A stretch of 64,000 nt of DNA from an uncultured Planctomycetota bacterium. Lineage in GTDB: Bacteria; Planctomycetota; Planctomycetia; Isosphaerales; Isosphaeraceae. Below the pieces are notes generated by a model. That model was given only the letters and a program-made list of their open reading frames with translations. It had not been told where the DNA came from and made no database searches. The DNA lies in assembly GCA_963823665.1 (NCBI GenBank), contig CAWGMQ010000010.1:1664001-1728000 (forward strand), in the 5' to 3' direction. The translations under genes and the position numbers were made by a program. Shown piece after piece: positions 399 through 64,000 of the stretch. How positions within the stretch are numbered: the stretch's first letter is position 1; each line of letters starts with the position of its first letter.

Positions 399-1322
399 CT
401 AGCGTTCGAGTCCCGGCACTCCGGCCAGAACCAGCATCGGCACGATGTAGCCGTTGACGAGCGCGGGGTGGAGGAACAGGCCGACAGGCAGGATAACCAC
501 GGCCGCGGTCCAGATTCGCCCGAGCCAGGGTTGGCCCCGGAGCAGACGGCGGGCGGGGTGGGTGCGTTCGGCCGCCACTCCGAGGTACTGCAGCAGGAAG
601 TAGAGGGCGGGCCTGCCGTAGCCAGCTCGGGCCATGAAGCTGAGTAACTCGTGGTAGAACCCGCTATAGAGGAACACCGCCAGCAGCGCGGCCCGCGCGC
701 CGGCCCGGCGCGCCACGGGGTAGAAGATGACTTCGCGCAACACCCCCGAGACGAGGCGGTTCCAGCGCCGACCCCAGAAGTCGCCGAGCGAGGTCGCGGC
801 GATGGGACAGTCCCAGAGCTTCTCGACCGCGAAGCCCATCGCCCGGAAGATCAACGTATAGAAGTCGAACCGCGCGATGAGGCTAAGGAAGCAGATGCCC
901 ACCAAGCCGATCCAGAGCCGGACCGGAAAGGGCGTCGCGGCCGGCAGCAGGCGCGGCACGAGCCAGAGGAGGGCCGCGCCGGTGGCCACGTTCAGGAGGA
1001 GCCCGCGCACCGTGGGAACCGGGGCCCCGGGCGTGGTCTGCTGACCTTTGAGGAATTGCGCCGGCTGCATCCCCAACCAGACGCAGTAGGCCAGAAACCT
1101 CATTCGGGTGAATCGAGCCCACGACTCCGGCGGCAGGCAGAGCAGCGAGGCCGCCTTCCACGAGGCCATGAGGACAACGGGCTGTCCGATATTGAACGTC
1201 GTCGTCCCTAGCCAGGGCCGGCAGCACCAGAAGGCGGCGAGACCGCCAACCATCAGGGCCCAGGCCAGAATGTACCGGTATAACGGGGCGGGTTGCTGCG
1301 TCGATGGCATGGTCGGTCGCAC
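399..1322 (-). CDS. Membrane-bound O-acyltransferase (MBOAT_2 / wax-synthase-like)
   Basis: Polytopic hydrophobic protein with P-x-x-ATSLGDFWGRRWN and FLYSGFYHE (catalytic His). Start may be ATG 1310. Confidence 0.85.
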   Translation of the reverse strand: MRPTMPSTQQPAPLYRYILAWALMVGGLAAFWCCRPWLGTTTFNIGQPVVLMASWKAASLLCLPPESWARFTRMRFLAYCVWLGMQPAQFLKGQQTTPGAPVPTVRGLLLNVATGAALLWLVPRLLPAATPFPVRLWIGLVGICFLSLIARFDFYTLIFRAMGFAVEKLWDCPIAATSLGDFWGRRWNRLVSGVLREVIFYPVARRAGARAALLAVFLYSGFYHELLSFMARAGYGRPALYFLLQYLGVAAERTHPARRLLRGQPWLGRIWTAAVVILPVGLFLHPALVNGYIVPMLVLAGVPGLER

Positions 1323-24581: not shown

Positions 24582-25185
24582 TTAGAACATGACCTCGCGC
24601 AACACCCCCGAGACGAGGCGGTTCCAGCGCCGGCCCCAGAAGTCGCCGAGCGAGGTCGCGGCAATGGGACAGTCCCAGAGCTTCTCGACCGCGAAGCCCA
24701 TCGCCCGGAAGATCAGCACATAGAAGTCGAACCGCGCGATGAGGCTAAAGAAGGTGATGCCCACCAGGCCGATTCAGAACCGGACCGGAAAGGGGGTCGC
24801 GGCCGGCAGCAGGCGCGGCACGAGCCAGAGGAGGGCCGCGCCAGTGGCCATGTTCAGCAGGAACCCGCGCACCGTCGGAACCGGGGCCCCGGCGCGCGGT
24901 CTGCTGACCCTTGAGGAATTGCGTCGGCTGCATCCCCAACCAGACGCAGTAGGCCAGAAACCTCAAGAGGGTGAACCGAGCCCACGCCTCGGACGGCAGG
25001 CAGAGCAGCGAGGCCGCCTTCCACGAGACGCCGAGGATCAGGAGCTGTCCGATATTGAACGTCCTCGTCCCCAGCCAGGGCCGGCAGCACCAGAAGCCGG
25101 CCAGACCGTCGGTCATCAGGGCCCAGGCCAGGATGTACCGGTACAACGGGGCGGGATGCTGCGTCGATTGCATGGTCGGTCGCAC
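24582..25185 (-). pseudogene. Frameshifted, 3'-truncated copy of the MBOAT gene
   Basis: 24583-25244 aligns with 721-1381; frameshift near 24893; lacks the His-containing C-terminal third. Confidence 0.9.
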
Positions 25186-45200: not shown

Positions 45201-47652
45201 CGCCGCCCGTGCCACCCTGGCCGCCGGGTTCCTGGCGCCCGAAGTAGAAGAAGCCGTTGGGTGTCCCCGTTCCCCCGAGGCCGCCGGTGCCGCCCAGACC
45301 GCCGAGCCCGCCCTGTGCTTTGTTGCCGCTGATCACGTCATCGGCGAGCGTCAGTGTTCCCGCGGCCAGATAGATCGCTCCGCCCTGACCGATCCCGCCC
45401 GCGGTTCCGGGACCACCCGGCCCGCCGGTGACGGAAGCACCCAGGAAGCCCGTTGACCCGGTGGCGCCCTGGGCCTCGTTGCTTTCCATCGAAACCTTGG
45501 ACATCGACACCAGGCCGCCATCCATCAGGATGCCGCCGCCGACGCCTGACCCGGTCGGCAAGAGCAGTCCGCCCGCGTCTCGGGCCATTCCACCGCTGAT
45601 CGTGAGGTTCTGGAAGAACACAGTCAGATTGCTGAAGCCCCCTGGCAACATGCCGAGGATCTCGAAATCTCGGTTCTCACCACCCGCGGTGATGACGGAT
45701 TGCCCCTCGCCCATTCCCTGGACGTTGATCGTCTTGTTCGCCATTTGCGAGGTGTTCTGAAGAACGATCTGGCCCCCGCTGACGTCGTAGTTGGCGCTGT
45801 AGACCAGAAGCAGATTGTTGATGGCATCTGCATTGGACCCAGCGGCGGCGAAGTCGTTGCGCACGCTCTGGTCGACCGGCAGCGGATAATAAACGCCGGT
45901 CCCGTTCGGAGCCGCCGGGGTTACCGTGACCGGGGTGGTGGTCAGGCTTGCGAACGGGTTCTTGCCCGCAAGGACGCTGATCTGGAAAACATAGGGAGTT
46001 GACGAGACAAGATTGAGCGTCAAGCCATCAAGCACGCCCATCCCGCCCGACATCTGAACCTTCACCGGAGCGAAGGTCGCGCCCGGAGGGCCGGAGACCA
46101 TGGAAATCGTCGCCGTCCCGCTGAAGCCGAACGCGAGATTGCCCTTGGCGTCCAGAGCCTCGACAACCGTGCCGAAGACACCGCCGGCCTGCACGCTTGA
46201 CGGAGGCTGGTACTCGATAGCCGCCGAAGTCGCCGCGCCGTAGTCGGCAAGGTCAGGGATCAGCTTGTTGCCGACCGGCGAGCCGCGGCCGGTCACCAGG
46301 TCATAGCCGGGGCCTGCGTTGTAAAAGTTATAGCCGACCGTTTCGTCGTGGAAGTCGCTCGCGGGGAGCGAATAGAGCGCGGGCAGGGTCTGGTTGGGCC
46401 CGTCAAGCGGCTCTAACCCGCCTTGCACGCGACCCTGATCGGCGATGGCGATTTCACCCGCCCAGGTTGGACTAGCAAGGCTCGTGCCTCCGACTGTACC
46501 CCAGGGCGTGCTTGATCCGAAATCGCTGGGATCGTAGACCGACACACCGGTGTCGACATCGGCGTCAGAGGAAACGTCGGGAACGGTCCGGAATCCTCCG
46601 CCGCCACTGAAGCCATCATCCTGCTGAAACACCGGCGTGGGGTAGACGGTGCTGATGCCGCCGCCGCTGGCCAAATCCGTGTCGAATGAATCGCTGCCGT
46701 AGCTCCAGCCGATTTCGTTCAGCCACTGGTTGCTCTTGGTGAGAGTCAGCGTTGTGCCGCCGACTGCGACGACGTCGGGCGAGAGTGAAGGATAGAGGGG
46801 CCCAGAGCCTTTGACGGTGGGGTTAGCGCCTTCGTCGCCGGTCGAAGCGAGAAAGGTGACATACGGGTTCGCGGCCAGCGCGGCCTGGAAGTAGGTTTGA
46901 TCGATGAACGTCTCGAGTGACCCGAAGCCGGCTTGTTCGTACTCGGCGCCGAAGCTCATCGAGACTACCGAAGCGCCCAGCTTGGTGACCGCGGTTTCGG
47001 CCGCCTGGAACAAGTCAAGGCCAGTAGGACCCTCCACAGCTTCGACAATATCGAGATTAGCGAGCGGAGCGATGGCGTGGGCCCATTCGATATCGAGAGC
47101 GATTTCCGTGCCCCAGCCGGACACCGGCGCCGGAAGCGTGGTTCCCCCGGTCTGGTTGTACATTCCGAATGAGGGTGGATCGGGCAGGCCGAACTCCTGG
47201 TCGAAAACCTGAAGTGCACTTCCGGCGAACTTGGGACCGGTCGGCTGGAAGCTCGTGTTGTTGCCGTAGTCGATGACCGCGATGGTTTGCCCCGCACCAT
47301 CCCCTTGAATTCCGCCGGGGAACTGAATGAGAGGGATTCCATAGGCCGTCTGCAACTGGATCGGTGTCAAGCCTGTAGGAGACGGCGCCTGGAGTGGGAC
47401 GATCCCGCCGCCGGGGCCTGTCCCGGGGAGACTGCCAGGACTGATCTGAATATCATGAAGCGCCGCCTCCTGGCGGGGCGTGAGCACCAGCTTGCCTTCG
47501 GGTGTCGTCGCCACCGGCCCGAAGGTCTGGTTGATCGGCATGGTCACCGATGATAGAACCAACCGGTTTTCGAGGTCCTCCAAAAGCGGGCGCGAAGCGC
47601 ATCGTGGCTTCTGGAGTCGATTGGAGCGGACTGATCGCTTGCGAGCGGACAT
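36201..47652 (-). CDS. Giant exported protein (~3800 aa): S53 sedolisin peptidase, Gly-rich segment, beta-helix (Pmp-like) repeats, repeated choice-of-anchor-Q-like modules and a Lys/Thr-rich tail; frameshifts ~43190, ~37395, ~36825
   Basis: LLEDLENRLVLS; EIALDIEWAHAIAP, ASTGDEG, GGTSLASP; GGAI.N.G.L...N.TF..N.A repeats; NNGGPTQTIALL.GSPAID...DQRG...DIGAYE x6; four consecutive ORFs continue one repeat pattern. Confidence 0.82.
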
Positions 47653-48305
47653 AGGTCGTTCTTCCTCGGTGCGGGGACCAGAAGCGCGGCCAAGGATCAC
47701 ACGGTGACCCAAGCTGCCCTGTCGAGCCGACGACGTCAATGAAAACGGGAATTCCTACTTACGATACGCATCCGTTACGATTTCAAACGCCCTGCAACGC
47801 GGCCAAGAGATCTCACGAGGACCGAACCCGAGCGAACGAATAACTCCGTCCGCAGAAGAGGATCAATACTACCAAACTGCGCAAAATGTGTGACTTACGC
47901 AGTCTGCCTTGCAGTTCGATCAAAATCAAGCCGATCGCCTGAGGACTCCTTCACAAAAAAGCCATCTGGCCGGATCAACCATCATGAACGTTGACCCGTC
48001 AGAGGTTTACGATGATTCGCCCTCTCTGAACTGCGTCCCTGACAATCTCCATACCATGCATGATATTTATCTCGCATCTATGCGATGCTCGCCCGGTCAA
48101 CCGCACAATCTTGGTCCGATTGACAGCGCGACCATTCGATTCCTTAGCGGACGCATGGGGCTCCTTCGATCCATCGCACTTGTGTGCAATCATCATGCAA
48201 TGGTCGCTCGCATCGTGTCAAGTGAGTGCTGGCGAAAGTGTGAATTTTCTTGAGGCCGCGACGGTCGTAGGCTTTTCTACCCAATCCGTGCGCCGCTGAG
48301 ACATC

Positions 48306-48327
48306 CGTAGGGTGGGTGCAACCCACC
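48306..48327 (+). repeat. GTAG-type REP
   Basis: cgtagggtgggtgcaacccacc, identical to the reverse complement of 26844-26865. Confidence 0.85.
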
Positions 48328-48544
48328 GGTAGCCATGTTAGCCCGAGGCGCCCCGCCAGACCCTGAAACGGTCGTCGCGGTGCGAGGAATCGATCGATCG
48401 CGCCGGATGATCGACGGGTTCGGTGAGTCGAAGCGGAACATCGCACGTGCTTCAAGTAAAGTGCCCGGATGACGCGAGACATTTCGCCACTGGACACGAG
48501 ACTGGCAGCGCACCTCCTGTGCGAGCCCATGAGAGGATACCAGG

Positions 48545-49516
48545 TCATCCTCCAAAATTCGACACCCTGGCTTCGTGACTCGATCGGTTCGCGTCATCCT
48601 CGGAGCGAGAAGCCGCGCCCGATGATTCGGTGCCAGGCAAGCTTTGCGTGGCGAAGGGACCGGGATTGGCGAAGAACCGGCGTCGATCTTCTTCGCTGGC
48701 GCAGAGGAACAACCGCCCGGCGTAAAGAATGCCCCAGCGCGGATCGCCGGGCGTTGTCTTTCCGCGCTCGAGCTGCGTCACGGGACACGCGCCGCCGTTC
48801 CAGGGCACGTAGCGATCCCGATTCTGGCGAAATCGTTCGCCCGCCGCCGGCGTCGCGAAGTAAAAGGCCTGGCCTTCGTGCTCGATTACGTGCTCGCTGT
48901 GGCCTTTCTTCAGCTTCCGCTCGTCGACCAGGCTCACCACGCAGTATCCGCTCGCGGCGAGCGTGCCGCCGCCGCCGGGCTCAGCCTTCTTGTCGCCACC
49001 GGGCGTTGCGTCTGCTTGTTCCTGCGAGCCGGCGGCCGGCGGTGCTGGCTCGGGTCTGGATGAAACCCGCGCATGGCAATCGCGCAGCAGTCCGTCGAGC
49101 TCTTGCGGACCCAGATACCCCTGATGAAAGCCGATGATGTCGCGGTTGGGCGCGACCACGACCGTCGCCGGAATCGCAGTGAGATTGAAGGCCGCGACGA
49201 GCTCTTCGTTGAGATCGGACCTGAGTTTGAGCGGCACGCACGATCGCTGCGCGTGCTCGACGATCGCGGGATGGGGAAACGAGTCGTTCTCCATCCGGGT
49301 GCAGTTCGGGCACCACGGGCCGGTGAACTGGATCCAGAGGAGCCGATTGGCGGCGCGGGCATCGTGCATCGCACCGGCGTAATCGTCGCGCCAGACGATT
49401 GTTGCTGGTTCGTCTGCGCAGGCGACTTGATGCGGGAAAAGAAGGCCGAGCACCCCGAGGGCAAGCGCGAAGCGAGATCGGGCCCGTTTGGGCCTTTTGG
49501 CATGCGAGTTCATCAA
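48545..49516 (-). CDS. Exported thioredoxin-family protein with two YHS-like domains
   Basis: Signal peptide; FTGPWCPNC; GYCVVSL...YF.T...F..N.DRY and GACPV...YAGRLFLC. Confidence 0.82.
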   Translation of the reverse strand: MMNSHAKRPKRARSRFALALGVLGLLFPHQVACADEPATIVWRDDYAGAMHDARAANRLLWIQFTGPWCPNCTRMENDSFPHPAIVEHAQRSCVPLKLRSDLNEELVAAFNLTAIPATVVVAPNRDIIGFHQGYLGPQELDGLLRDCHARVSSRPEPAPPAAGSQEQADATPGGDKKAEPGGGGTLAASGYCVVSLVDERKLKKGHSEHVIEHEGQAFYFATPAAGERFRQNRDRYVPWNGGACPVTQLERGKTTPGDPRWGILYAGRLFLCASEEDRRRFFANPGPFATQSLPGTESSGAASRSEDDANRSSHEARVSNFGG

Positions 49517-49752
49517 GCATCTCCGTCAGCGACGAGGTTCAGAGGCTGTCGTGAGTGAAGGCTCGCGGCGCTATGCCGCGTACTCCTTCCCTGGAGATGC
49601 CACCCGAGTTCACCGAGCGGGCCAGACCATTGGCAGTCGAACGAAAGTCGGTTTTTTCTCGACAGTCAAATCGGCCGGCGGTGGGCTCGCACTTGAACCG
49701 CGAGCGGCGCTCCGAAATGTCGCGGCCGGAAGAATCGCGACAAGCGGTTCCT

Positions 49753-50341
49753 TCAGCGAGATCGGCGCGAGTGGCGCAGCGCGAGGGGGGGCTTCAAGAC
49801 CTCTATCAAGATCGCGATCTCACGGAGCTTTTCCGGGGAACCGAGAATGGCGCGAGCGGACTGGGCGTCGAACGTCGAGGTTTTGGGGCGGACCGGGCGC
49901 GGCTCGAGGGACGCGCGAGTTCCCAGCGGAGTGAGCGTGGCGCTGAGCGATGACAGCGGGATCTCGAGGGGGACGATTTCGAGCGGGCGGTTGGCGGCCT
50001 GCGACATGCTCAGGCTGATCTGGCTGGAGAGCCGGCGGCCTCTTTCCGGCTCGGCGGTCTTGGCGGTGGTCGCGCCCGAAGTCGAGCGGCCCCGGCCGCC
50101 CCGCCGGGACGAGCTTCGCGATCCACGTGAGGATGTCGGGACCGGCGCAGCGGTCGCCGCCGCGCCGGGAAGTGATCGCGCGGCGCGGGAATCAGACTCG
50201 GGAAACCGGCTCGCCGACGGCGCGAGCCCACCCATGGGCCGGGCGCGGGGGCCTCGGCGGCAGGGGCTGCGTCTCGCGGCTCAGCAGCGAGGTCAGTGCC
50301 CAGAGGAGCAGGATTCCGAGCGAAATCAGGATCTGGAGCAT
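49753..50341 (-). CDS. YqfB-like hypothetical protein downstream of floA (frameshift ~50240)
   Basis: N-terminal TM MLQILISLGILLLWALTSLL; C-terminal LREIAILIEVLKPPLALR motif in ORF 49753..50235. Confidence 0.55.
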
Positions 50342-50436
50342 GGTGTCGCTTTCGGGGGGGCGGGAAGGGATCGTTCGCGTGGGTGCAGGCGAGTTGACGC
50401 ACTTTCGCAGAGCGAAAGGCGACTATTCGGCCCGCT

Positions 50437-51504
50437 CTAGCCGGGTACCTGTGCGTTCTCGCGGCGTGCGTTGCCGGTTCCGGCGATCGAGTTTCGCATT
50501 TCGGTGTCGGCTTGAACGTTGCGAAGATTGTAATAGTCGACGATGCCGAGATGTCCCTTCCGGAAGGCCTCGGCAATGGCCATGGGGATTTCGGCTTCGG
50601 CTTCGACGACCTTGGCGCGGTTTTCCTGGACGGCGGCTTGCATTTCCTGTTCTCTCGCCACGGCGAAAGCACGCCGCTCCTCGGCCTTGGCGCGGGCGAC
50701 GCGGGTGTCGGCTTCGGCCTGGAGGGCTTGAAGGTTGGCGCCGATGTTATCGCCGACGTCGATATCGGCGATGTCGATCGAGAGGATCTCGTACGCGGTT
50801 CCGGCGTCGAGGCCTTTTTCGAGCACACGCTTGGAAATCGACTCGGGCCGCTCGAGCACCTGGAGGTGCGTTTCGGCCGACCCGATCGCGTTCACGATGC
50901 CTTCGCCCACGCGGGCGATGATCGTCTCATCGGTGGCGCCGCCGACTAAGCGGTCAAGGTTGGTCCGCACGGTCACCTTGGCTTTGACCTTCAACTGAAT
51001 GCCGTTCTTGGCAACGCCGTCGATTGTCTGGCGGCCGGATGCGGGATCGGGGCAGGGGATGACCTTGGGGTTCACGCTCGTCTGCACGGCCTCGAGGACG
51101 TTGCGGCCGGCCAGGTCGATGGCGGCGGCTCGCTTGTAGGAGAGCGGGATATCCGCGCGGTTGGCGGCGATCAGCGCGCGGACGACGTTGGGCACGTTGC
51201 CTCCGGCCAGGTAGTGGGCCTCGAGTGCCCGGGTCGTCATCCCGTCCTTCTCGGACAGACCGGCCTGGTAGGCCATGATCTTGGAGCGGACCATGATGTT
51301 GGGATTGACCTTGCGGAACGACATGCCGACCAGCTCCCAGATCGTCACGTTGGCCTGGGTCATCTTGGCCTGGATCCACAGCTTGAAATACTTGGCGAGG
51401 AAGATGCTGACGATCAAGGCGAAGCCGCCAATGGCGATGATCAGCAGCCAGATATAGGTTTGCCACGGGTTCGTGGGCAGTTGCGCGAAGAGCACGGTGG
51501 TCAT
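50437..51504 (-). CDS. floA: Flotillin-like protein FloA (UPF0365 / YqfA)
   Basis: [22 protein letters not shown]....[45 protein letters not shown]. Confidence 0.95.
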
Positions 51505-51526
51505 GGTGTTTCCTTTGAAGTTGTGA

Positions 51527-53729
51527 TCAACTACCGATTTTCTTGACGACGACCCGCGGCCCCTGCACGTCGACGACTTCAATCAAGGTGTCGGGCTCGA
51601 CGAAGCGGTCGCCTGCGGTGACGTCCAGGAGCAAGCTGCCGAAGCGTGCCTTGCCGGTGGGTCGTAGAGCAGTGGTCGTGCGCCCGGTTTCACCGATCAA
51701 GAAAGCGAAGGAATCGAAGCCGTCGGCCGAATGTCTGCTCTCTGTGTCTTCGACTTCGACCGCTGTCCAGGGCTCGGGCTTCAAGATCAGGCGGTTGAAC
51801 AGTGGCAGCGACGGGAAGTACCGTGCCAGCCCGACCGCAGCGCACCCGACGGCGATCAGCACGCCGGTCAATTGCAGGAGCGTGTGGCCGAACTCCTGGT
51901 ATTCGTAATCTTCTCTGGGCCAGATGAACGTGTGGCTGGCCAGGACGATGCTGCAGAGCATGAGCAGGATTCCGCTCATTCCGAAGACGCCGAAGCCCGG
52001 AAACACGAAGATCTCGAGTGCGATGCAGACCAGGCCGATCAGGAAGAGAATGATCTCTAGCTGGTCGGCCGTTCCGCTCAAGTAATGGCTGCCGAAGAAG
52101 AGCAGAAACGCGACGGCCGAGATGATCGCCGGCAGGCCGATACCGGGCAATTTCAGCTCGACCACGAGCATCACCGCGCCGATGAAAAGCAGCATCCAGC
52201 TCACGTACGGATTGGTGAGCACCGTCACCAGCCAGTCGACCCACCCTGCCCCTTCGACCCGCATGGTGCGCGGGACGGCGTAGAGGTCCTTGAGCTCGTC
52301 GCCGCCGGAGACCACGTGCCCCAGACCGAACGAGGCGGCATCATCGGCGCCCAGAGTGAGAACGGATCCGGGGGCTTTACGGGTTTCGAGGATCCGGAAT
52401 CGATCTCGCGCGGCCAGGGCCTCGGCGCGGAGGATCAACCGGCTCGCGCCGGTCTGGGCGTCGCTGGCCTCGACGATTTCGGCTTCCGGATCGATCATGG
52501 CAATCGGCGACGGCTTGCGGATGCCCTTTGGCCTGGGCCCACAGAGCGGCCTTCTTGGCCAGCCCGGCGCGGGTGGTCGCGCTCAGGTCGTGCAGCATGC
52601 CGTTCCGCCCGCTCACGGTCTGGCGGATATCGCCCATGGTCGCGCCCTTCTTGAGGACGATGTCGCGGCAGGCCAGCGGCAGAAGCGCGGCCACACCCAG
52701 GGCCCGTTCATTGATGTAGGCGACGGTCTTCATGTCCTTGATCTCGGCGAGGATGTCGCCCATCCGGTCACCGGCTGCCTCGGTTCCCCCCGGGCTGTCG
52801 ATTTCGAGGATGAACAGGTTCTTTTTCTGCTGCCGGGCGTCCTCGAGCTTTCGCGACAGGAACGACACCGAGACGCTGTCGAGCAGTCCTTCGAGCTTGA
52901 TCCATTCAGGGCGGACGCTCTGGCCCAGTGTCGGGTCGTCGACCGACGACCGCCCCCCCAGTTGGTACATGTTCGCCAGCTCGGCGGGGCTCTCGGCGGT
53001 GCGCTTGCAGAACCCTTCCGCCCGCGCGCGCTCTGCGGTCAGGATGCCGCGGGCACCGGCGTCCCAGGCGGCTTTGTCTTCGGTGACGTTGTGGGTCTTC
53101 AAGAATTCTTGCATGTTTTCCGCAAGAACGTAGTGCACGGCGCGATCGGCAGTACGCACCACATGGAGGTCCGCGTCGCGGTCGAGCATGCCCAGGAGCA
53201 GGTCGGGCTCGCGCGTCTTGCGAATCGCCAGAAACCGAATCGGTTCCCGGTGGGCGGGGTCGAACGCACGGTCCTCGGGTGTGATCGGGCCCAGCGAGGC
53301 CGATGCCCCCATCACGATCTCGGTGCAGGCGACCGCGGGCAGCACGACGAAACCCTTGAGCGGCTTTGGCACGTAGGCCACCGTGAGCTTCGCGCCGGCC
53401 AGGTCGCGTGAGATCAAGCTCGCCAGGTCGTATGACGACCCGAACTCGCTGCTCCCAGGCGCCGTGTCGCCGGGGAGGAACTCGAACACAAGAACCGGTC
53501 GCGCCGCCTTGCCCGACGCCGCGGCCCGATCGACAAGCTGCCGCGAGGCCGCTCGAACCCTGGTGAGCGTATCGTTCGTGATCGGCTCCACGATCTGAAA
53601 GAACTGGCCGGGGGCGTCGTCGGCGCTTGCCGCTTCCTGGGCACGTGCGACCAGTGAAGCCGGCGCCGCAAGCACGGTCACGCAGAGCCACACTGCGACG
53701 TGGCGCGGCACAAGAACTGGGCGGAACAT
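51527..53729 (-). CDS. nfeD: NfeD-family membrane protease-like protein (YqeZ-type); frameshift ~52500
   Basis: [38 protein letters not shown]-terminal OB fold [12 protein letters not shown]; upstream of floA. Confidence 0.85.
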
Positions 53730-53970
53730 GGCAGCCGGACTCCCTTCGAGAGTCGGACGCGCCTCTTTGGCCTCGTTTTCCGGCACAACGATACAAGCGT
53801 TGCAATCAGGGCTGATTCGCGTGAAGTCCTTAATAGGAGTCAATCACACTCGTTTGCCGTTCACAAGAGAGCGCGAACTGAATCCATCAAGTCGCTCATG
53901 ATCCTGATTATAGACGGGCCGCCGGAAGGGGTCAAACATGGCGCACGGGCTGGATCAGTACCAGCGAAAT

Positions 53971-54945
53971 TCATTGGCGATCGATCGGCTCCCGACCGGG
54001 AACGGTGCGCTGTGCCGCTTTGGGATCCCCCGGCCGGCGAGCACGCTTGGCGCTAGCGCCCGTCGGATCATCGCGCAGGGGATTGATCTCGGTTGTCCAC
54101 CCGCTAACCTTGCTCATCTTCACCCCGATGAAGTACTTCTCGCTGATGCCCTCCTTGTTGTTGGCACTGAACTTGGACAACCAGAAGTCTTGCCGCTTCA
54201 CCCGGTCGGGCGAAATGAGCGTGATCTGTGCAGGCAGCAGGAACTTGCGGTCGAGCTTGACCCACGCCGTGCTGAAGACGTCTTGATCTTCCTTGAGTCG
54301 CGGGGTCACCACGACGAGGGAGTACTTCTCGTCCTGACCTCGCAACACCATGTGGTATCTCTGTTTGGCATCTCCGGCACGCATCCGGAACAGGAACGGC
54401 AGCGGCCCCTCATCGAGCACCTTTTTGCGCATGGTGTTGTCGAGCGTCCAGATCACGAGGTTCTTCACGTCGGATCGGTAGTCCCATACTTCCTTCCCGG
54501 TGCACAGAATCGTCTCGAACGGGTCCGAGAGAGGCTTCCCGTTCTTGTCCTTCTGCACAACCATCACGCGCTTGTTCTTCACTTTCGGATCGGCCTGCGC
54601 CGACATCTTGACCTTACGGTAGTCGACGTACGCCAGATCGGGGTTCTTGAACGCGGCATGTCCCGTGAAATGGACCTCATCGCCCCACTCTGCGTCGCGG
54701 TCGATCCGGTAAATATCGACCTCGAGTGTCTCGAGTTTCCTGCTCTGCAATTCCCACTGGCCGAGCAATGCATCCATCGCCTCGGGCGGAAACGCCTGCG
54801 CCTGCTGGACTTGCCCGGGCGCCGCCTGAGCCGCTCTCGCCTGCTTGGCCGGAGCCTGCCCGCGATCCTGGGCTCGAGCCGCTTGGTAATTTATAGCCAG
54901 CACGGCGACCGACACGACAGCGAAGAGCATTTGACGACGCGGCAT
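53971..54945 (-). CDS. Planctomycete TIGR03009-type LolA-like exported protein
   Basis: Signal peptide; LLGQWE...L..L.V...R.D; ETILCTGKEVWDY; EGPLPFLFRM.A..AKQRY; W..LD...LLP. Confidence 0.75.
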   Translation of the reverse strand: MPRRQMLFAVVSVAVLAINYQAARAQDRGQAPAKQARAAQAAPGQVQQAQAFPPEAMDALLGQWELQSRKLETLEVDIYRIDRDAEWGDEVHFTGHAAFKNPDLAYVDYRKVKMSAQADPKVKNKRVMVVQKDKNGKPLSDPFETILCTGKEVWDYRSDVKNLVIWTLDNTMRKKVLDEGPLPFLFRMRAGDAKQRYHMVLRGQDEKYSLVVVTPRLKEDQDVFSTAWVKLDRKFLLPAQITLISPDRVKRQDFWLSKFSANNKEGISEKYFIGVKMSKVSGWTTEINPLRDDPTGASAKRARRPGDPKAAQRTVPGREPIDRQ

Positions 54946-55358
54946 GGGCAATCGCCCTCCATGCACCGGCCCCGGGCGCACCGGCAAACGTATCGACGAA
55001 CTGATTCGACCAACCACCGCGGATGTTCCATCAACCCGCAGAGAATAGAGACCGGGGAACCTACCACAACTGCCAAAGAACCACCAGTGCAGCCGGCGGG
55101 CCGAGCCCGGTCCTCCGATCGCCAATGCGTCTCCTCGTCCTCCGCCCGCCGTCCTGCGTTTCACGCCCTCCATCGCCCCGAGTTCGTTTTGTATATTCGA
55201 CGCGCGTCCTTGTCCCATAACGATTAAGGGAACGAATCCCAGGAATTCCTCGCGCCCTTGTGAGCGAGGTACCGCCGCGGCATGAGCATCCCTCCCGCTC
55301 TTGTTGGGAGCTGCCGCCGCAGGCGTCGGACGGGGGTCGCGCGCAGGTAGGCCGCAGC

Positions 55359-55390
55359 CAACTGACAACCGACAACTGACAACTGACAAC
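55359..55390. repeat. Heptamer tandem repeat (CAACTGA)n
   Basis: caactga caaccga caactga caactga caac. Confidence 0.85.
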
Positions 55391-56691
55391 CAGCCCAACG
55401 GCAACGCCTTGGTTTTCGATGCGCCGCCGACCGTTTCCGATGCCAAGCCTGGTGGCTCGCCGAGACACCTCGGAGGGGGTCCAAAACATAGTGAACAAAC
55501 TAAGAGATTCAGGGTGGCGGTTTCGACCTGACTAGCGCCACGAGGTGTTTTTGATCGCCAGGCCGCATCGGGATCATACCCTATCATGTTATCTCCATTT
55601 GATTTATGGAGCAACTGCGCCCCTGTCTGACGACCACATGTAAGTGGCGGATTGTGGCGCATTGTGGCGCGTTTACGAGGGGTCTCCAGCATTTGTACAT
55701 TAGTGTAAATCGCCCGCTTTCAGAAGCTGCCAGTGGCCGGCAGCCGTCCGCTATTGAATACTGCTCGGTGATGCTTCCCCGGGCTGGCGTGTAAGGCCGC
55801 AACAGTACAGCCGACGGCAACGCCCTGGGGCCTGCCTTCGCACGCTTCAAATAAGTAGAAGTGGATGAGACAAAATGAGACGAAATGGGACGATTTAGCC
55901 CAAAAAAGTCTCACATTGCTCGCTGTGTTGAACCCCCTCCGATGGCTATCCGGAACGCTTTGAAGCCGTACGGAAAGACTGAGAGCCAAAGAGGATAGCC
56001 CCACAAGTCCCGCTTCATGATCCCTCGCCCCAACGGCGGAAAACTCACCCTCACCGCGGTCCAAACCCGTCCCACTGCCGGCAAAGCTCAAAATTCGGTG
56101 GCATTTCGTCGCGCACCGATCCCCCTTTTGGAGCACAGTCCGGCCCCGTATTTCCCACAACATGGCCCTGGCCAGGCCGAGCTGAATTCTTCGAGCACGC
56201 GCCCGAGCAAACGAAGCAGTCATTCCCGGTCCCAGAGAGATGTGTGGTGCCTCGCGCCGACTCCAGTGTCGGCGATCGAGATCGCGCTAAGTATATTATG
56301 CGACGGGTTTCCCGGATTTGGCCATTTCGTCGACCAGAAAACCCGGAATTTTTTTCGCGTCGCAACGGATGCAACGATCAACGCGATTGCAACCCCCGAA
56401 TTGAGAGTGATCTGGTTAAGAACTCTGCAAGAACGCCCGACGCGATTCCCGCATCGAGGTTGTCCGTTCGGTCGATGCGCGTCCTCGTCCTCAATGCAGG
56501 TCATCTGATCCCCGACAGCCAGCCATTCGGCTTGAGTGACGCGCGCGAGGTCGACAGACGCAGAAGAGCTTCCGAACAGTGTCAGAACGCAAGGTTACGC
56601 CGCGCATGTTTACGAACGGCGCGCTCGCCACCGTCCTTTTGGAGAAAATCGCATTCGATTCTGAACGATGCACCCCGATTACCTCATCACA

Positions 56692-59600
56692 TCATTGCTG
56701 CAGAAGCTTCCGACGTGATTCGAGGCGGGTCATCGCTTCATCCGCGCCACTGACCGGGCAATACGTCTCAATGGCAAGCCGAATGTCCTTCTCCATTTCA
56801 TCGACGCCTTCGGCACCGGAGAGTCCTAGAGCGACCTCGTAAGCCGCGAGGGCATCGCTTGTCCTGCCGCTAACTAGCAACGCAATCGCGAGATTGGCGT
56901 GAGGTGTCCAATCCTCTGGATTGAGCGAGATTGCCTGTTGCTCGTCCTCGATCGCTTCATTCTTGCGACCGGCGAGGAAACGCAACCAGCCCCGGCTGCA
57001 CAGGGCCGCGGCGCGCTCCTTCGCGTTTGTACCCTGCATCTCGATCACGGTTGTGTAATCGCCTATCGCCTTGGCCGGCTCCCCCCGTCTAGTGTGAATC
57101 GCGCCGCGGTGGTTAAGTGCTTGAGAACCTAAGTTCATCGGGAATCTCCGTCATTCCAATAATTGCTGTGTAGTCGGCCATGGCGTCGTCCAGCCTCTGA
57201 AGCTGAGCGCTGGCCGCCCCTCTGAAATAAAGTGCCTGCGATTTCGGCTGCCCGGAAATCTCGGTGGTCTCGATCACCGTTGTGAAGTCGGTTATCGCGT
57301 TTTCGAGCTGGCCGAGTTTGGAGTAGATCAAACCACGGCGGCCAAGGTTTTGAGCTCTTCCCTCAGGGGAAGCAGCACTCAACCCGAGCAGCAACGTGAA
57401 GTCGGCGATTGCCTTCTGAAGTTCGCCGACTTGTTCATAGATCGACCCTCGCATAGAGAGGGCGTCGGCTTTCAGTTCCGCGAGGTCCGCGGGCATTTGA
57501 ATCACGGCTGACATGTCGGCGATCGCCTTGGCTGATTCGTTCTTATCACGATGTGCCAAGCCACGGTAGAAGCAAGCGTTGGCTAGCACATCGGACGAAA
57601 CCCCCGGCAGTTCGATCACGACGGTACAGTCCGCGATTGCAGAGTCGTGCTCCGCTTGTCGACTGTGGCTGATGCAGCGCAAGAGCAGAGCCCTCGCTCT
57701 GGCATCGGCGCGAGCGTCAGGCATTCCGACGACAGCCGAATAGTCCGCGATGGCGCTCCCGAAGTCGCGTTGCTCGGCGAACGCGACGCCGCGATTCATC
57801 AGCGCTTCGGCGCGCTCCTCAACGGGGACGTCCTTCATGTCGATGACATCCGTGAAGTCGCACATCGCACGGTGCAATTCGCCGCGTTTCTCGTGCGCCA
57901 GACCTCGGAAGATCTGAGCCCTCGCGCGCTGGTCCACCGGAATGTTAGATGCGTGGATGGCGGCGGTAAGGTCGTCGATCGCCTTCTCGAACTGACCCGC
58001 TTCCCAATACGATAATCCACGATACACAACGGCGAACGATTTCTGGTCGGCTGGAGCGTTCGACATCTCAAGCACGGCGCCGTAATCGGTGATTGCCTCC
58101 TTGGGTTGCTTCAGGAGATCGAGTTGTAGGCCTCGGCCAATCAGAGCGGAGGCTCTCTCCAGGGGCGACGGGTCAAAATCCTGAATAACCGCCGCAAAGT
58201 CGGCGATCGCTTGTTGCGACTCGCCCATTTCGCCGTATGCGAAGCCGCGACAGAGGTGCGCCTTGCATTTCTGATCGGCCGTTGCGCCTGGCAGGTCGAT
58301 CACTGCCGTGAAATCGACTGTCGCCAGTTTGGGTTGAGCGGTCTGTTTAAGCGCCGCCGCACGGCCAAGCAAAGCTTTGATCAGCCAATCCTCGCGCCGC
58401 GCAGGCTCGTCTGCCGTCCGGATGACAACATTGTGGAACGGACTAGCGTCGGCTATGCCGCCCTGCTGGCCAAATGCGAAGGATGGTACGACTAGAAGCC
58501 GAGTTTGCCGCTCGGTCAATGTTCCGAGCACTTGGATGCAGGAGGCGTAGTCCGCAATCGCTTTTTCCGGTTCGCTGATCTGGAGGTGCATTGTGCCACG
58601 TTCGGACCGCGCCAGGGCCTTCCTGTCGGCGGGCGCGTCTGGCATCTCGATTACAGCTGCGTAGTCCGCGAACGCTTTCTCGGGCCTTCCGAGTTGACGA
58701 AATGCCGCGCCGCGATTGACCAACGCTCCAGCCTTCTGTGCGGGAGAGGCCGCGATTTGCATCACGGAGTCATAATCGGCAATGGCCTTTTCTGGTTCGC
58801 CTTTGTGACCGTGTCTCAATCCGCGGTTGAAGTGTGCGCCGGATTTCTGTTCAGGCGATGCTTCCTCCGATTGAAGGATCTGTTCGCAAAGGCTCATCGC
58901 GGCATCGAAACGCAGGTCGGCGAGCCCAGCGTCCGCGGTTCTCATCGCCCATTTGGTTAAAACATTCGCCCAGCTTATGAACACCGCGATACGAGTCGAC
59001 GGGTCTCCGTCGTAAAGCACCCGGCATACCCGATCCCAGAGGACAAAGTCCGAGTCTCCGGTGAGGGTCTCGAGGTCGGTGGTCGAGAGAAGATGTGCAA
59101 GAAACGGCGCCGCTCCGGGACTCCAGGTGGACCGGAGTAGTTTGGTTAACGCACCGGAGAACTCGGAGGGCGATCGAGGTTGCTTGAAAGCCGTCGCAAG
59201 AAGATTGTCGTCGAACGAATCGCCGGCTGATCGCAGGACCTCTCGTGTCAGCTTTTCATATTCCTCGGCTAAGTACTCATCCGTGTAGCCGCGCGTGAAG
59301 ATCGTTTCTTTCAATGCCAACTGCGGGTGGTATGACAGTTTAACACTAACGTCGCCCAGACCTTGCTCAACCTGCTTGAGCCGCTCTCGCTTCCCCTCGA
59401 TCTCCCCGGCGGGGACGAGACTCGCCACGATCATGCATGGCTTTGATCCCGGCGCAGGGCCGGTTTCTTCATAGACCCCGACCTCAATAAGGAACTTACG
59501 AGTTCCGGCCACGTTCTGGTCATTCATCGCTGTGAGGACGACGAGCTGGTCGGAGAGCGGCCCGATGCAGAGACCCCCGATCTCCGTGATGCCGGTGCGG

Positions 59601-60148
59601 CTGTCGATCAGAACATAGTCGTAAGAAGCAGATCGCGGATAGTCCGGCCCGTAGTAGTCGGGAACTTCGATCGGAAACCGGAGGCTTTGAAGCCACGCTC
59701 TTAGCACACTTCCCGTCTTTACCAGCGCTTGCTGATCGCAGTCCCTGATGGCGAGTTCAGAAAGTCTGTCGTAGTACGCTCGCTCCTCGTCCGCCGGAAT
59801 GATGTCGAGACGACCGAACTCGCCGAAGAGCGATGCAATCCGATCTGGATCGTTCTTCGCGATAGGGACAATGTATTCAGCGGCAGGGCGATATGATGCA
59901 GGGACTAGCGGTAGAGAGACCGTCCGGGCCCAGCTCACCAAGTCGAGAATGTCGCACGGAGCGTAACGTGGAATCTCCTTGTCTCGGTGAAGAAATCCGC
60001 TAAGGCCTGGCGCCTCCAGGTCCATATCCAGGATAAGGACGTGCCGGCCTTTAGCCGCAAGGGCGAACGCCGAGTTCACGAGTGCCATGCTTCGGCCGAC
60101 CCCGCCCTTGAAGCTGTAGAACGCAAGGATGGTAGGCGTGTCTTTCAT
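56692..60148 (-). CDS. KGGVGR-motif ParA/MinD-like ATPase fused to a long TPR array (~1150 aa); frameshift ~57128
   Basis: FYSFKGGVGRSMAL.N, LILDMDLEAPGL, YDYVLIDSRTGITE.GG; many A..DFTAVI.MPDA.ADQKA.AL..RG repeats continuing in ORF 56692..57138. Confidence 0.88.
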
Positions 60149-60962
60149 CCCGCGATTGACTGCCGAACGTCGATGGCCTTGAGCCTGGCAATGCCACGCA
60201 ATTTCGTTCCCACAGGCGTGCCAGTCGATTCCACCGGCGGACGAGAATTCCCGGACGGGATCGACCGCAGCACGTCGCTCAAGTTCTTTATCTCGCCGAG
60301 GTACGCATCCCAGGGCACGGCCGGAAACTCGTTCTTCGTGAACGCGTCGAACGTGAGCCTGATCCGCTCAGGATCTTGGGCCAGAGAGTAACGCAAGTGA
60401 GCCTGCCAGCGCAACTGCCGATTCCTGGCGGCACAGAGCATGAAATCCGCCATTCGTTTCAGAGACGCCCTGTCGCAGCCCTGTTGGTACATGCTGTTAA
60501 AGCGTTCCTTCAGGCAGACGGCCCACTCGCCCAGGAGTGCCTCAAGTGCCGCGTCAGAAGCGGTTGTGGCGCGAATTGACTCGTTACCCCGTTCGAGACC
60601 ACGCCAAAGCAACGGTTCGTCACGAAACACTTCGGGCCAGGCAGCTCGACCTGTTGTGTCGAGGAACGTTCGAGCCGCGAAAACCACCATCGGATATCGT
60701 CCAGACTGTGCGCCGAATCGCACACGCACGATCGCGGAAAAGGAAGCGGCTCTCGGAATTTTGTCCATCGCCCTGCCTCGGCGAGCTCTGTTGCCTGTCC
60801 CTCATCGTACCAGGAGAGCTTTGCCGCATCTTCTACAGGACCGAGCACGCAGTGCATTCCGTCCGATTGGCGCCGCGCGATCGGCAATGCGCGACCGCAC
60901 TCCACGACCGGCGATCCATTAAAGCCGACAATTTCCAAATCATGATCTCGCGCCAGCATCAT
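60145..60962 (-). CDS. Hypothetical protein (~270 aa; probable frameshift ~60630-60770)
   Basis: ATG 60962 overlaps the upstream TGA and TGA 60145 overlaps the downstream ATG; ORFs 60510..60986 and 60145..60768 likely belong to one gene. Confidence 0.55.
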
Positions 60963-61789
60963 CGGAGACATTGCTCCTGTGCCCATTGCTCGATTCGTTC
61001 GCAGAACATCGGCGTCCCCGCCGGTTCGAGCGCGCCAGGTCCGGAAAAGAATCGTTCGAGGGGGGTCGGCGGATCGCCTGGCGGGGACACTCCGTCCTCG
61101 TCCAGTCGCCGCCGTAGGGACTCCATCGTGGGCTCATCGGCACACCAAGCCGCGCGATCTTCAATCGGTTGACCCTCGTGAAATCGTACCTCGAATGTCC
61201 AGGCCCGCCAATCGCTGTTCAGTTCGTATAGCCCTTCGGGATCGAACGGTTGCGGTTTGCCCGACCAGTAGTCGACTGAGGATAGGAAGTGCGCTGCGAG
61301 CACTCGGGCGAACACATCGCGCCAGCGATCCAAAGGGATTTCAGACGATCGGAAATACTCTGTTCGTTCCGCGTCGCCATCCGTGGGCGAAAGGCGCAGT
61401 TTCACAACACGCTTCGGATGGACGAGCCCACCGGTGTCAAAGGGCGTCGCGGAACCGGTATGACCGGCCTCGCACGGTGGCAGGAAAGCGAGTGCAACGG
61501 AGCCAAATTTAGGGTGTGCTCGTCCCGCATAGAAGTACACGCAGCTTAAAAGCCCGAGTAATTGTTCCGCGCGCCTCGTGCCGCGCGAACTGCTCCCATC
61601 ATCATCGGACGCGAGGATTTCGTGTGGCGCGTTCTGCACCATTGTCTAGAACGGGCTCTTACTTCCGGTCACATGAACCAGGGCGATGCGCTTCGACACA
61701 TCGTGGCAACTGGGCAACCTCCGTTTGTAGCCGCCACTGTCAAACGGTGGGCTTGAAGCGCGTTCGTCGAGATCCGTGAACACAGGCAT
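60959..61789 (-). CDS. Hypothetical protein, candidate ADP-ribosyltransferase-like fold; in-frame TAG at 61648-61646
   Basis: Upstream in-frame ATG 61789 gives ...IALVHVTGSKSPF*TMVQN..., then VYFYAGRAHP, TPFDTGG and WTFEVR. Confidence 0.55.
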
Positions 61790-62070
61790 CGGCAATGATG
61801 ATCCGTTTGGTTAGTCGAGTGAAGGCTGGATACGATTCAGGAAAGTGGTAACGTTCTATACATAAATGATATCGGCCGTCACAGAGAAACGATAGAACGG
61901 AACATGGCGACGCAGAGGTGTTGCCGACCGGCCACCAAGGCACGCCATATTCGGCCCGGCCGTCACGTCGCGCACCGACTTGCGGGGCGCTGCTGACTTC
62001 GAGAGAATAAGAACCGTGGCAGCGGCCCAGCATATCGGCGGAGGCCATCCACAAAACCGGCGGAGTGGCT

Positions 62071-62742
62071 ATGAAAGCGGATCCTGATCACGCTCCCAAG
62101 CGATTCGTACTGCGGTTGAGCGTCCGCATGTTCATGACGCTCATCCTCCTTCTCGGCGCCTGGCTCGGGTGGGTCGCCCGTCAAGCCGATCGCCAGCGGC
62201 ACGCCGTCGCGGCGATCGAGAGGGCCGGAGGCCGCGTCTATTACGATTGGCAATACGCCGGCGGCACGACTAGCGGCGCCGAGCTTCCCCTTGACGGGCC
62301 CTGGGTGCCGCGCTCGCTCGTGAACCTGCTCGGCCCTGACTATTTCGGGACGGTGATATCCGTGCAATTTGAGGGATGCGGTACGGACGAGGTCCTGGCT
62401 AAAGTCGCGCAGCTCAACGGGCTCGAACAACTGACACTCTGCATGTCCCAGGTCAGCGACGATGGAATGCGCCGGATCGCGGGCCTGCCCCGCTTGCAAC
62501 GGCTGAATCTCCAGGACACCGCCGTGGGCGACGCCGGGCTGAAGCACTTGGAATCGCTGCCGCGATTGCGCATGCTGACGCTGCCAAACAATGTCACCGA
62601 CGCGGGTCTGGTTCGCCTTGCGGGCATGCGAGGCCTGCGCACGGTCTTCATCCATCGCGAGCAGAGCTGCCAGTTCCTGACGGAAGAGAGCCTGCAAAGG
62701 CTCCGCTCCAGGCGGCCTGACCTGGCGATCGACCCACCTTGA
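62071..62742 (+). CDS. Membrane-anchored leucine-rich-repeat protein (planctomycete type)
   Basis: RLSVRMFMTLILLLGAWLGW..RQ..AVAAIE..GG.V.YDW; L..L..L.L..T.V.DAGL..L repeats. Confidence 0.85.
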   Translation: MKADPDHAPKRFVLRLSVRMFMTLILLLGAWLGWVARQADRQRHAVAAIERAGGRVYYDWQYAGGTTSGAELPLDGPWVPRSLVNLLGPDYFGTVISVQFEGCGTDEVLAKVAQLNGLEQLTLCMSQVSDDGMRRIAGLPRLQRLNLQDTAVGDAGLKHLESLPRLRMLTLPNNVTDAGLVRLAGMRGLRTVFIHREQSCQFLTEESLQRLRSRRPDLAIDPP

Positions 62743-62788
62743 GGCCCACACGAGGGCCAGACCCGAGAGGACCAGCGGAGTCTTACCC

Positions 62789-62992
62789 ATGCCCCAGGAC
62801 AAGGAAAAACCAGACGATCGGCTCGGTGAGCTCGCGAAGTCTTCTGATCAAGAGCCCGGATACTCGAATCCACCGTCGCCGAAGACCGCAGAGGAGCGGT
62901 TCGAGGAACAAGTCCAAAGACTGCTCCGCTCCGTTGATCCGTCGCATGTTGACGATACCTGGGAGGGATGCGGCGGAAACCCCGCCCGTTGA
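62789..62992 (+). CDS. Small hypothetical protein (67 aa)
   Basis: ggag RBS upstream, ATG start, protein-like composition; no family recognised. Confidence 0.35.
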   Translation: MPQDKEKPDDRLGELAKSSDQEPGYSNPPSPKTAEERFEEQVQRLLRSVDPSHVDDTWEGCGGNPAR

Positions 62993-63097
62993 ACCTCCGC
63001 GCCCGAGCGACCGATGTCTCGGGCCAGCCGAAGAAGCGCCTTGAGCTCCGGAGTGCTCGGACGACACACGCAAGCTGCTCGATCAACTGGCAACCAT

Positions 63098-64000
63098 TCA
63101 CACCAGCGGGTGCTTGAGTCGACCTTCATGCACCGCCGCGATCGCCTCCTCGATTGTGAGTGCGCCTTTTGCCGTCTCGTCGAGACTGGTCCATAGCTCG
63201 TCGCATCTCCGGCGCTCCTCCTCACCGATCGCGGGCGATACACGTGAAGGAACCTGCATACCTAGAAGCAAGGTAAGGTAACCGGCGAACCCGAAGATAC
63301 TCCAGGGGGGGAGAGTCACTTGACCTCGCTCGGCAGGGTCCGGGATCATCGATGCAAGCGCTGGACCGAGTTGCTCATATGTATCGACGAAACCCTGAAG
63401 CGAGCCCAGCGGGATTGACGAGTGACACCACCTCCAGAACTCCGACTCACGCGCTCGATTGAATTTGTAGTGGATCGCGATGAAGTCACGAATGTCATCC
63501 CATCGCTGCGCTGCTTGCGTGTTGTACGCGGCGATCCGTCCCGCGTCGGGACAGAGCATACTCAGGTCGAGGTCTCGAATCAGCCACCTGACTTGACTTG
63601 CGATCATGTGCAGCCCCGTCGACTCAAGCGGCTCCACGAACCCGGAAGAATTGCCGATGGCGATCACATTCTTGAGCCAGCAAGTCTCATAGCGGCCCGA
63701 AGGGAAACGGATCGTCCTGACATTGGACGGCGACCCCTGTGTTTCACGCAGATATTCTGCACGCGCCTCATCCTCACTGATATGGTTCGAGCTGAACACA
63801 TAAGCTTGATTAATCTTCTCGACGTGTTCGATTCTCCACATCCAGCCGCATTCCATCGTCGTGCACGTCGTGCAGGGACGGACCGGTTCAGGGCGCGCCC
63901 ATTCGCCGACGATAGCCCTGTCGCACGCAAGTACATCGGCGTAGGAAATGAACTTCACACCAAGTTGCTTGAGAAACAGCGACGAAAACCCGGTGCAATC
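63098..64000 (-). CDS. Tryptophan-halogenase-family flavin-dependent halogenase, 5'-partial
   Basis: DCTGF at the window edge, GWMWRI (WxWxI), IGNSSGFVEPLESTGLHMI, IRDFIAIHYKFN. Confidence 0.88.
   Translation of the reverse strand, partial: DCTGFSSLFLKQLGVKFISYADVLACDRAIVGEWARPEPVRPCTTCTTMECGWMWRIEHVEKINQAYVFSSNHISEDEARAEYLRETQGSPSNVRTIRFPSGRYETCWLKNVIAIGNSSGFVEPLESTGLHMIASQVRWLIRDLDLSMLCPDAGRIAAYNTQAAQRWDDIRDFIAIHYKFNRARESEFWRWCHSSIPLGSLQGFVDTYEQLGPALASMIPDPAERGQVTLPPWSIFGFAGYLTLLLGMQVPSRVSPAIGEEERRRCDELWTSLDETAKGALTIEEAIAAVHEGRLKHPLV

Follow-up and report, generated by a model that had tools for sequence, protein, structure and literature searches.

A three-gene operon with a predicted DarT-fold ADP-ribosyltransferase and a KGGVGR ATPase in an uncultured Isosphaeraceae bacterium

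The DNA analyzed here, referred to as the window, is a stretch of 64,000 nucleotides from an uncultured Planctomycetota bacterium of the family Isosphaeraceae (assembly GCA_963823665.1, contig CAWGMQ010000010.1), whose genome comprises 16.5 Mb in 12 contigs. Near one end of the window lies an operon of three minus-strand genes, which encode a predicted ADP-ribosyltransferase (ART; gene 1), a protein of no known family (gene 2) and a KGGVGR-type ATPase carrying an array of TPRs (gene 3). Each gene runs into the next through a shared ATGA, at 60962-60959 and 60148-60145 in the open reading frame (ORF) reading of the window, as described in an initial annotation of this DNA. The same gene order and overlaps recur in other Isosphaeraceae genomes, where the genes are intact and the surroundings differ, so the arrangement is more than chance. 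By its predicted features the operon fits a class of toxin systems that has already been proposed computationally, and comparison across loci identifies genes 1 and 2 as its stable core. The features of the operon are listed in Table 1.

Table 1. Features of the operon, in window coordinates
Feature	Position	Strand	Remarks
Gene 1, predicted DarT-fold ADP-ribosyltransferase-like	60959..61789	-	276 codons; broken by a stop
In-frame TAG, codon 48 of gene 1	61646..61648	-	Relatives have one open frame across the position
Gene 2, 5' piece, beta-rich domain, approximately family residues 1-80	60723..60962	-	Start within the ATGA shared with gene 1
Gene 2, 3' piece in the other frame, approximately residues 88-267, TPR-like helical end	60145..60702	-	Likely antitoxin or adaptor
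Gene 3, ParA/MinD-like domain, residues 5-220	59489..60136	-	KGGVGRS Walker A, DMDLEAPG, DYVLID Walker B
Gene 3, main open frame of 1011 aa: KGGVGR ATPase, linker, TPR array	57113..60148	-	
Gene 3, frameshifted tail with more TPRs	56692..57138	-	

The three genes and their families

Gene 1 contains the motifs LVHVT, VYFY, PFDTGG and WTFEVR, all four of which read as annotated, and belongs to a family for which a search at E up to 0.001 gave 461 representatives at 50% identity. No model from Pfam, NCBIfam, PADLOC or PHROGs matches gene 1, and family models match none of 114 aligned relatives. A sequence search against the PDB gave nothing acceptable (a lone row at E 0.21 was rejected), and the ESM Atlas returned no usable match. 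Searches for gene 1 in plasmids and phages with tblastn, and in IMG/VR, gave no match.

The fold of gene 1 was assessed using P0004, an intact relative from locus L001 that is 65% identical and was modeled with AlphaFold2 from 114 sequences (pLDDT 97, pTM 0.93). When this model was compared with 48,161 solved chains using VIA-align, the best match was the DarT of Thermus (Z 10.3, root-mean-square deviation 3.5, 178 residues aligned), followed by the DarT proteins of M. tuberculosis (9.9) and T. africanus (8.8), CopC (8.5), OspC3 (8.4), SopF (8.1) and DarT1 (7.8). All of the top eight rows are ARTs, with tRNA phosphotransferases and further ARTs below them, and the top nine rows of a Foldseek search with the same model are SopF, DarT1, DarT and OspC3. 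The ART fold proposed in the initial annotation is thus upheld by the model. PF14487 (DarT/DUF4433) matches 0 of 114 family members at E up to 0.1 and nothing in the source genome, and as modeled gene 1 is a DarT fold that lies outside the DarT sequence family. Its conserved residues, in P0004 numbering, are H39, E75, Y85/Y87/G89, D118 and E200. The glutamate at 200 is unchanged in 114 of 114 sequences, while position 39 in the first strand is H in 81, R in 15 and T in 12 of 114 rows. DarT activity depends on one conserved glutamate according to two reports (PMC5179494, PMC11543638).

Gene 2 had been annotated as lacking a recognizable family, and it indeed has no sequence match in Pfam, NCBIfam, PADLOC, PHROGs or the PDB; none of its 96 homologues carries a Pfam entry. 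In the predicted structure (pLDDT 90.7), the N-terminal half is rich in beta strands and the C-terminal half is helical. Foldseek searches of this model against the PDB and BFVD returned nothing at E up to 0.001, and VIA-align gave only rows of TPR-like helices, the best of which (Z 9.1) falls in the range of a common helical arrangement. Because these rows cover residues 106-229, the N-terminal beta domain was barely probed. Pfam gave no macrodomain or NADAR match in the gene 2 pieces of the window or in 7 longer homologues. Two homologues carry additional C-terminal parts: a LuxR helix-turn-helix in L054:2318-3364 and a ribosomal protein S15 domain in L058:592-1797, the latter possibly through read-through or misassembly.

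Gene 3 scores 132.7 bits against the NCBIfam model NF047398, for which the cut-off is 90, and is the only one of 10 matches to this model in the source genome that exceeds it. The TPR array is recognized by Pfam TPR_1 (E 1e-45) and consists of 14 motif repeats, mostly spaced 38 residues apart, so the annotation of gene 3 as a KGGVGRS variant of ParA with TPRs is sound. An ordinary partition or MinD protein was rejected as the identity of gene 3 (19 bits versus 180 for NF041546, and 20 versus 213 for MinD), and family scans of the adjacent genes revealed no ParB or MinE families. The PADLOC model PDC-M28B matches the ATPase domain alone, with its best stretch at residues 5-67, and a literature search found no paper naming PDC-M28. 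Genes 1 and 2 have no PADLOC model, as had been expected.

The conserved gene pair, its third partner and the proposed mechanism

The coupling of genes 1 and 2 was counted in 82 loci (74 from metagenomes and 8 from genomes), with duplicates and loci L004, L016, L022 and L023 excluded. A locus was considered assessable if it contains the C-terminus of gene 1 and at least 300 nucleotides beyond, as do 62 of the 82. Directly downstream of gene 1, a gene 2 homologue is present in 58 of these 62 loci, or 40 of 44 clusters at 85% identity. Locus L099, one of the four misses, matches three accepted gene 2 members at E 1e-21 or better. The co-occurrence on which the initial annotation had staked its proposal is therefore seen well outside the window.

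Manual labels were assigned to the third gene in 34 of 57 clusters; the remaining 23 were too short downstream or were left unlabeled. A KGGxGR ParA occupies this place in 20 of the 34 (17 plain, 1 mixed, 1 ParA-NACHT-FGE and 1 ParA-TPR-Cmr1), although four of the ParA loci end at contig ends and L045 has no TPR family; across loci the ParA-TPR ORFs range from ~540 to ~1030 aa. A tandem KaiC-like protein with two KaiC stretches is found in 5 of the 34 clusters. In the KaiC loci L061, L064, L065, L066, L080 and L084, the third gene encodes 1185-1307 aa with PF06745 twice and a Walker A motif, and gene 2 is longer, at 378-421 aa. Something else or nothing follows gene 2 in 9 of the 34 clusters. 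Because the third gene varies while genes 1 and 2 stay together, the stable core of the system is the gene 1-gene 2 pair; the initial annotation did not mention that the ATPase-TPR gene is exchangeable. A gene 1 tree of 75 rows, made by a quick search only and without the split-gene KaiC locus L084, has ParA partners scattered over several branches and KaiC partners at two or more positions, with weak support between them. Given this weak support and the omission of L084, no order of events is drawn.

One ParA locus links the pair to CRISPR genes. At L086:3356-12000 (+), one frame of 1032 aa downstream of the ART and its partner encodes ParA, TPRs and Cmr1, and Cas10/Cmr2 (with GGDD), Cmr3 and Cmr4 come next; the ART of this locus has Arg at position 39 and keeps the Glu. 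Eleven more full-length ParA-TPR-Cmr1 fusions (P0362-P0372) share 41-86% identity, and each has KGGxGR and a RAMP domain; the ART pair upstream of such a fusion was seen in one locus, L086. A separate protein, P0373, is a KGGTGR ParA protein of 1148 aa with PF00270, PF00271, PF18019 and PF22590, which we take to be Cas3 helicase and HD domains, making a ParA-Cas3 fusion possible. Another unusual arrangement, at L076:2608-11331, consists of the ART, a short gene 2 homologue, an unknown 313-aa gene, ParA-NACHT-FGE and then DUF4062-NACHT.

The distribution of the operon is patchy. Among the other Isosphaeraceae genomes, gene 1 occurs in 9 of 120; none of the 400 genomes sampled from the remaining Planctomycetota has it, although metagenome-assembled genomes of Pirellulaceae and Gemmataceae appear among the source names of its relatives. 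The location of the operon also differs from genome to genome: in G429, a genome of the same genus (84% complete), the floA-nfeD-TIGR03009 block is kept and other genes lie beyond it. Such spread resembles that of defense loci, by analogy. Chosen neighbors were scanned in 21 long loci, 6 of which have defense-type neighbors: AIPR and DUF5131 in L001, AbiE in L062, DUF4062-NACHT in L076, a methylase with CARF in L080, a phosphorylase effector in L084 and type III-B Cmr genes in L086. Four other loci had matches to ABC-transporter and sigma-54-type ATPase models, which this count leaves out. Both Singulisphaera operons (L002:746-5967 and L003:6312-12339) lie directly after dnaA, a position that would be of interest if the enzyme modifies DNA.

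The model put forward in the initial annotation, comprising a TPR sensor, an ATPase switch, an ART effector and gene 2 as antitoxin or adaptor, remains the favored one. In the form judged somewhat probable here, a DarT-fold ART toxin would be restrained by gene 2 and freed when the TPRs of gene 3 sense an invader, arresting the infected cell. The gene 2 protein would bind and silence the ART, while the TPRs would bind an invader product. The ParA domain would then change state and free the ART, which would modify DNA or some other target at the expense of NAD+, or would drain NAD+, so that the cell stops. Nucleic acid is proposed as the substrate because DarT is the nearest fold, and this prediction is given slightly less than an even chance; the remaining probability is divided between a protein target and simple NAD+ breakdown.

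Genes 1 and 2 could instead form one enzyme, with gene 2 serving to activate or aim the ART as an adaptor or a subunit for target recognition, and with the third gene acting as one trigger among several. The close fold matches SopF, OspC3 and CopC, which depend on a cofactor protein and whose structure entries show them bound to ARF1 or calmodulin, are in keeping with this idea, and so are the TPR-like helical end of gene 2, the extra C-terminal parts of some homologues (such as the LuxR helix-turn-helix in L054) and the variation of the third gene. However, toxin-antitoxin systems typically have the toxin gene first and an overlapping partner second, the two almost never apart, which is the pattern observed here. 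DarT also outscores the cofactor-dependent enzymes in the fold comparison, and the pair occurs without an ATPase in 9 of 34 clusters, a setting in which the cell would be harmed by an enzyme left unchecked. The adaptor explanation is accordingly rated as rather improbable.

The restrained-toxin model must also be set against a role outside defense, in which the operon would regulate stress responses or development through an ADP-ribosylation switch. Most loci lie amid housekeeping genes, including those next to dnaA in S. acidiphila and Singulisphaera GP187, and the KaiC-like ATPase in five clusters would suit regulation. Patchy presence and shifting location are more typical of conflict systems, and the TPR arrays of very unequal length and the NACHT or Cmr1 partners likewise speak for conflict, leaving the regulatory switch the least probable of the explanations considered here.

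Several observations nevertheless weigh against a toxin that is restrained by gene 2 and released in defense. Among the genes scanned, 15 of the 21 long loci have no clear defense neighbor, and in S. acidiphila the operon comes immediately after dnaA. The coupling of the pair depends in part on profile iteration: the first gene 2 profile found 46 of 62, and 12 of the 58 were obtained only after iteration on the same loci, in which all open frames of all loci were searched and only frames just after gene 1 were added. Nor is the switch required in every case, since 9 of 34 clusters lack an ATPase after gene 2. Foldseek E-values for the gene 1 fold are weak (0.017 at best), and HH-align of the gene 1 family against 12 DarT sequences gives a probability of 0.2, which is not significant; for these reasons, the proposed match of H39 and E200 to the catalytic residues of DarT follows their order and conservation rather than a residue-level superposition. 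Finally, the top eight ARTs fall within Z 7.8-10.3, and protein-modifying enzymes are among them, which leaves the choice of substrate wide.

The exchange of the third gene allows a broader and more speculative extension of the restrained-toxin model, which is considered improbable. The ART and its partner would be a portable kill module wired to interchangeable NTPase sensors (ParA-TPR, ParA-NACHT, tandem KaiC-like and ParA-TPR-Cmr1). In the Cmr1 case the type III-B complex would serve as the sensor, and binding of target RNA would flip the ATPase and free a DarT-like nucleic-acid ART by direct contact, with no diffusible messenger. If the Cmr1 fusion does control the toxin, it would represent CRISPR output by direct coupling. 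Literature searches, with poor coverage of subscription journals, found no paper on the gene 1 and gene 2 family, the KaiC partner or the ParA-Cmr1 fusion.

Condition and surroundings of the copy in the window

In addition to the TAG in gene 1, which the initial annotation had reported, genes 2 and 3 contain frame breaks that it did not, and all three genes of the window copy are therefore interrupted. The frame of gene 2 changes between 60723 and 60699. Gene 3 ends at 57113, and its last TPRs run on in a different frame at 57138-56692. The TAG is a substitution, and a 156-nucleotide short-read contig from run X3 (depth 5.7) matches 61616-61771 with 0 differences; this contig extends 30 letters past the TAG codon, one below the bridging rule, and X3 may have been produced in the same study as the assembly. 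The frameshift sites of genes 2 and 3 are outside short-read contig coverage.

The copy is probably decayed, with the toxin lost. An alternative that is unlikely, yet deserves attention, is that the living cell has an intact operon, the three breaks being assembly errors or, in the case of the TAG, being read through. Approximately seven other frame switches (counted by eye) lie inside coding stretches of the window, one of them in nfeD at 51527-53843 (-), which is split near 52500. Three of four relatives have nfeD as one frame of 824-860 aa, and in G429 it is split too, at a different place; the split in the window is likely an assembly indel. The other switches and the whole nfeD of the relatives make assembly error a reasonable explanation for the frameshifts. 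At the rate of the window, 0.6-0.8 switches are expected in 5.1 kb, with two or more in ~12-18% of cases, and gene 1 is split in 6 of 82 other loci as well. Against an intact copy stands the TAG, since it is a substitution and the X3 contig agrees with it, subject to the limits given above. No indels are present among the contig pieces listed for 36500-56400, although the listed pieces do not span the suspected frame switches.

The operon is bounded by non-coding DNA, as annotated: coding signal is absent for ~1.8 kb downstream and for ~250 bp upstream, where a divergent gene follows. A scan for promoters and terminators gave no signal above that of shuffled sequences. The initial annotation had also described the operon as AT-rich. 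Its GC content (0.586-0.600) is indeed below that of the window (0.630) and of floA/nfeD (0.62-0.66), but two near neighbors, the TIGR03009 gene (0.590) and the halogenase gene (0.578), are equally low, and strong AT-richness was for this reason dropped as evidence. The upstream region (62065-64000) contains the divergent gene, for a membrane-anchored leucine-rich repeat protein, and a tryptophan-halogenase-family gene; in G429 the halogenase and the floA block are on separate contigs. Downstream, the non-coding segments at ~55160-55490 and 56170-56470 hold short repeats that match many places in G429, and 55359-55391 has very deep coverage in soil runs.

Elsewhere in the window, an 11-kb coding stretch at 36204-47547 (-) runs across four frames, with switches near 43194, 37397 and 36827, and is probably one giant surface protein. 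Near-identical peptide text (YRYILAWALM...WCCRPWLGT) is present at 24585-25161 (-) and 402-1280 (-); the former, which lies in three frames, looks like a decayed duplicate.

Comparison with known systems

Gene 3 belongs to NF047398 (KGGVGR-motif variant AAA ATPase), which is a domain family that says nothing of genes 1 and 2. DarTG1 and DarTG2 resemble the operon in that DarT is the nearest fold to gene 1 (Z 10.3), with an early His strand, a late invariant Glu and a downstream partner gene. They differ in that a third gene is common here and the partner has no macrodomain or NADAR sequence match. Membership in DarTG was rejected on the lack of PF14487 matches (0 of 114) and the non-significant profile comparison (HH-align probability 0.2). 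SopF, OspC3 and CopC share a fold group with gene 1 (Z 8.1-8.5), but they are injected effectors acting on host proteins, whereas the gene 1 product is a small domain that stands alone and has its cognate partner encoded downstream. No secretion genes were found among the scanned neighbors of the operon loci. CmdTAC (PMC11618068) is similarly a three-part anti-phage system, built from an ART toxin, an antitoxin and a chaperone; its third part is SecB-like, in place of the ATPase-TPR protein found here, in a comparison made by description only (10.1101/2024.02.24.581848; 10.64898/2026.10.19.760177 section 24).

The closest counterpart is provided by the three-gene TA-ParA systems, including an ART subtype (ii), that were predicted computationally by Li, Burroughs and Aravind (bioRxiv 10.64898/2026.10.19.760177, sections 24 and 26, Oct 2026). 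According to the main text of this preprint, ConB2-type ParA proteins are marked by a Walker A Lys to Arg change, PG after DxD and a DhhhhD Walker B. All three marks can be read in gene 3 (KGGVGRS, DMDLEAPG and DYVLID), by motif comparison only, and the first two also in the ParA partners tabulated from other loci. Like subtype (ii), the operon combines an ART-superfamily toxin (by predicted fold), a partner from a previously unrecognized family and a ConB2-type ParA with C-terminal TPRs, and the same switch mechanism has been proposed for both. The NACHT-module variant named in the preprint is likewise encountered here, in L076. With every testable defining feature present, the operon fits the already predicted TA-ParA ART class, as far as its sequence and the main text of the preprint allow. 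The word undescribed in the initial annotation thus no longer applies at the level of the class, where the operon corresponds to a known system in both architecture and model, the very outcome which that annotation had named as counting against it.

Below the class level some differences can be seen. The terms 'Singulisphaera', 'planctomyc' and 'DarT' are absent from the main text of the preprint, as are KaiC, RecA, CRISPR, RAMP and Cmr, while KaiC-like and Cmr1-fused partners are found here. The fixed core of genes 1 and 2 with a varying third gene is also absent from that main text; the supplements may list this very ART family. The present analysis adds a predicted DarT-fold branch that has no Pfam, NCBIfam, PADLOC or PHROGs model, together with a partner family that has no clear structural match, and the exchange of the third gene bears directly on whether ParA is a replaceable switch. 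TA-ParA systems are at this stage predictions, with no experimental work found in the same literature searches. The window copy, which is likely decayed, would be the wrong one for testing them. The intact copy in the cultured Singulisphaera acidiphila DSM 18658, whose proteins are encoded at NC_019892.1, 2421-5967, and in which the residues to be mutated are clear, provides a testable case of a TA-ParA system.

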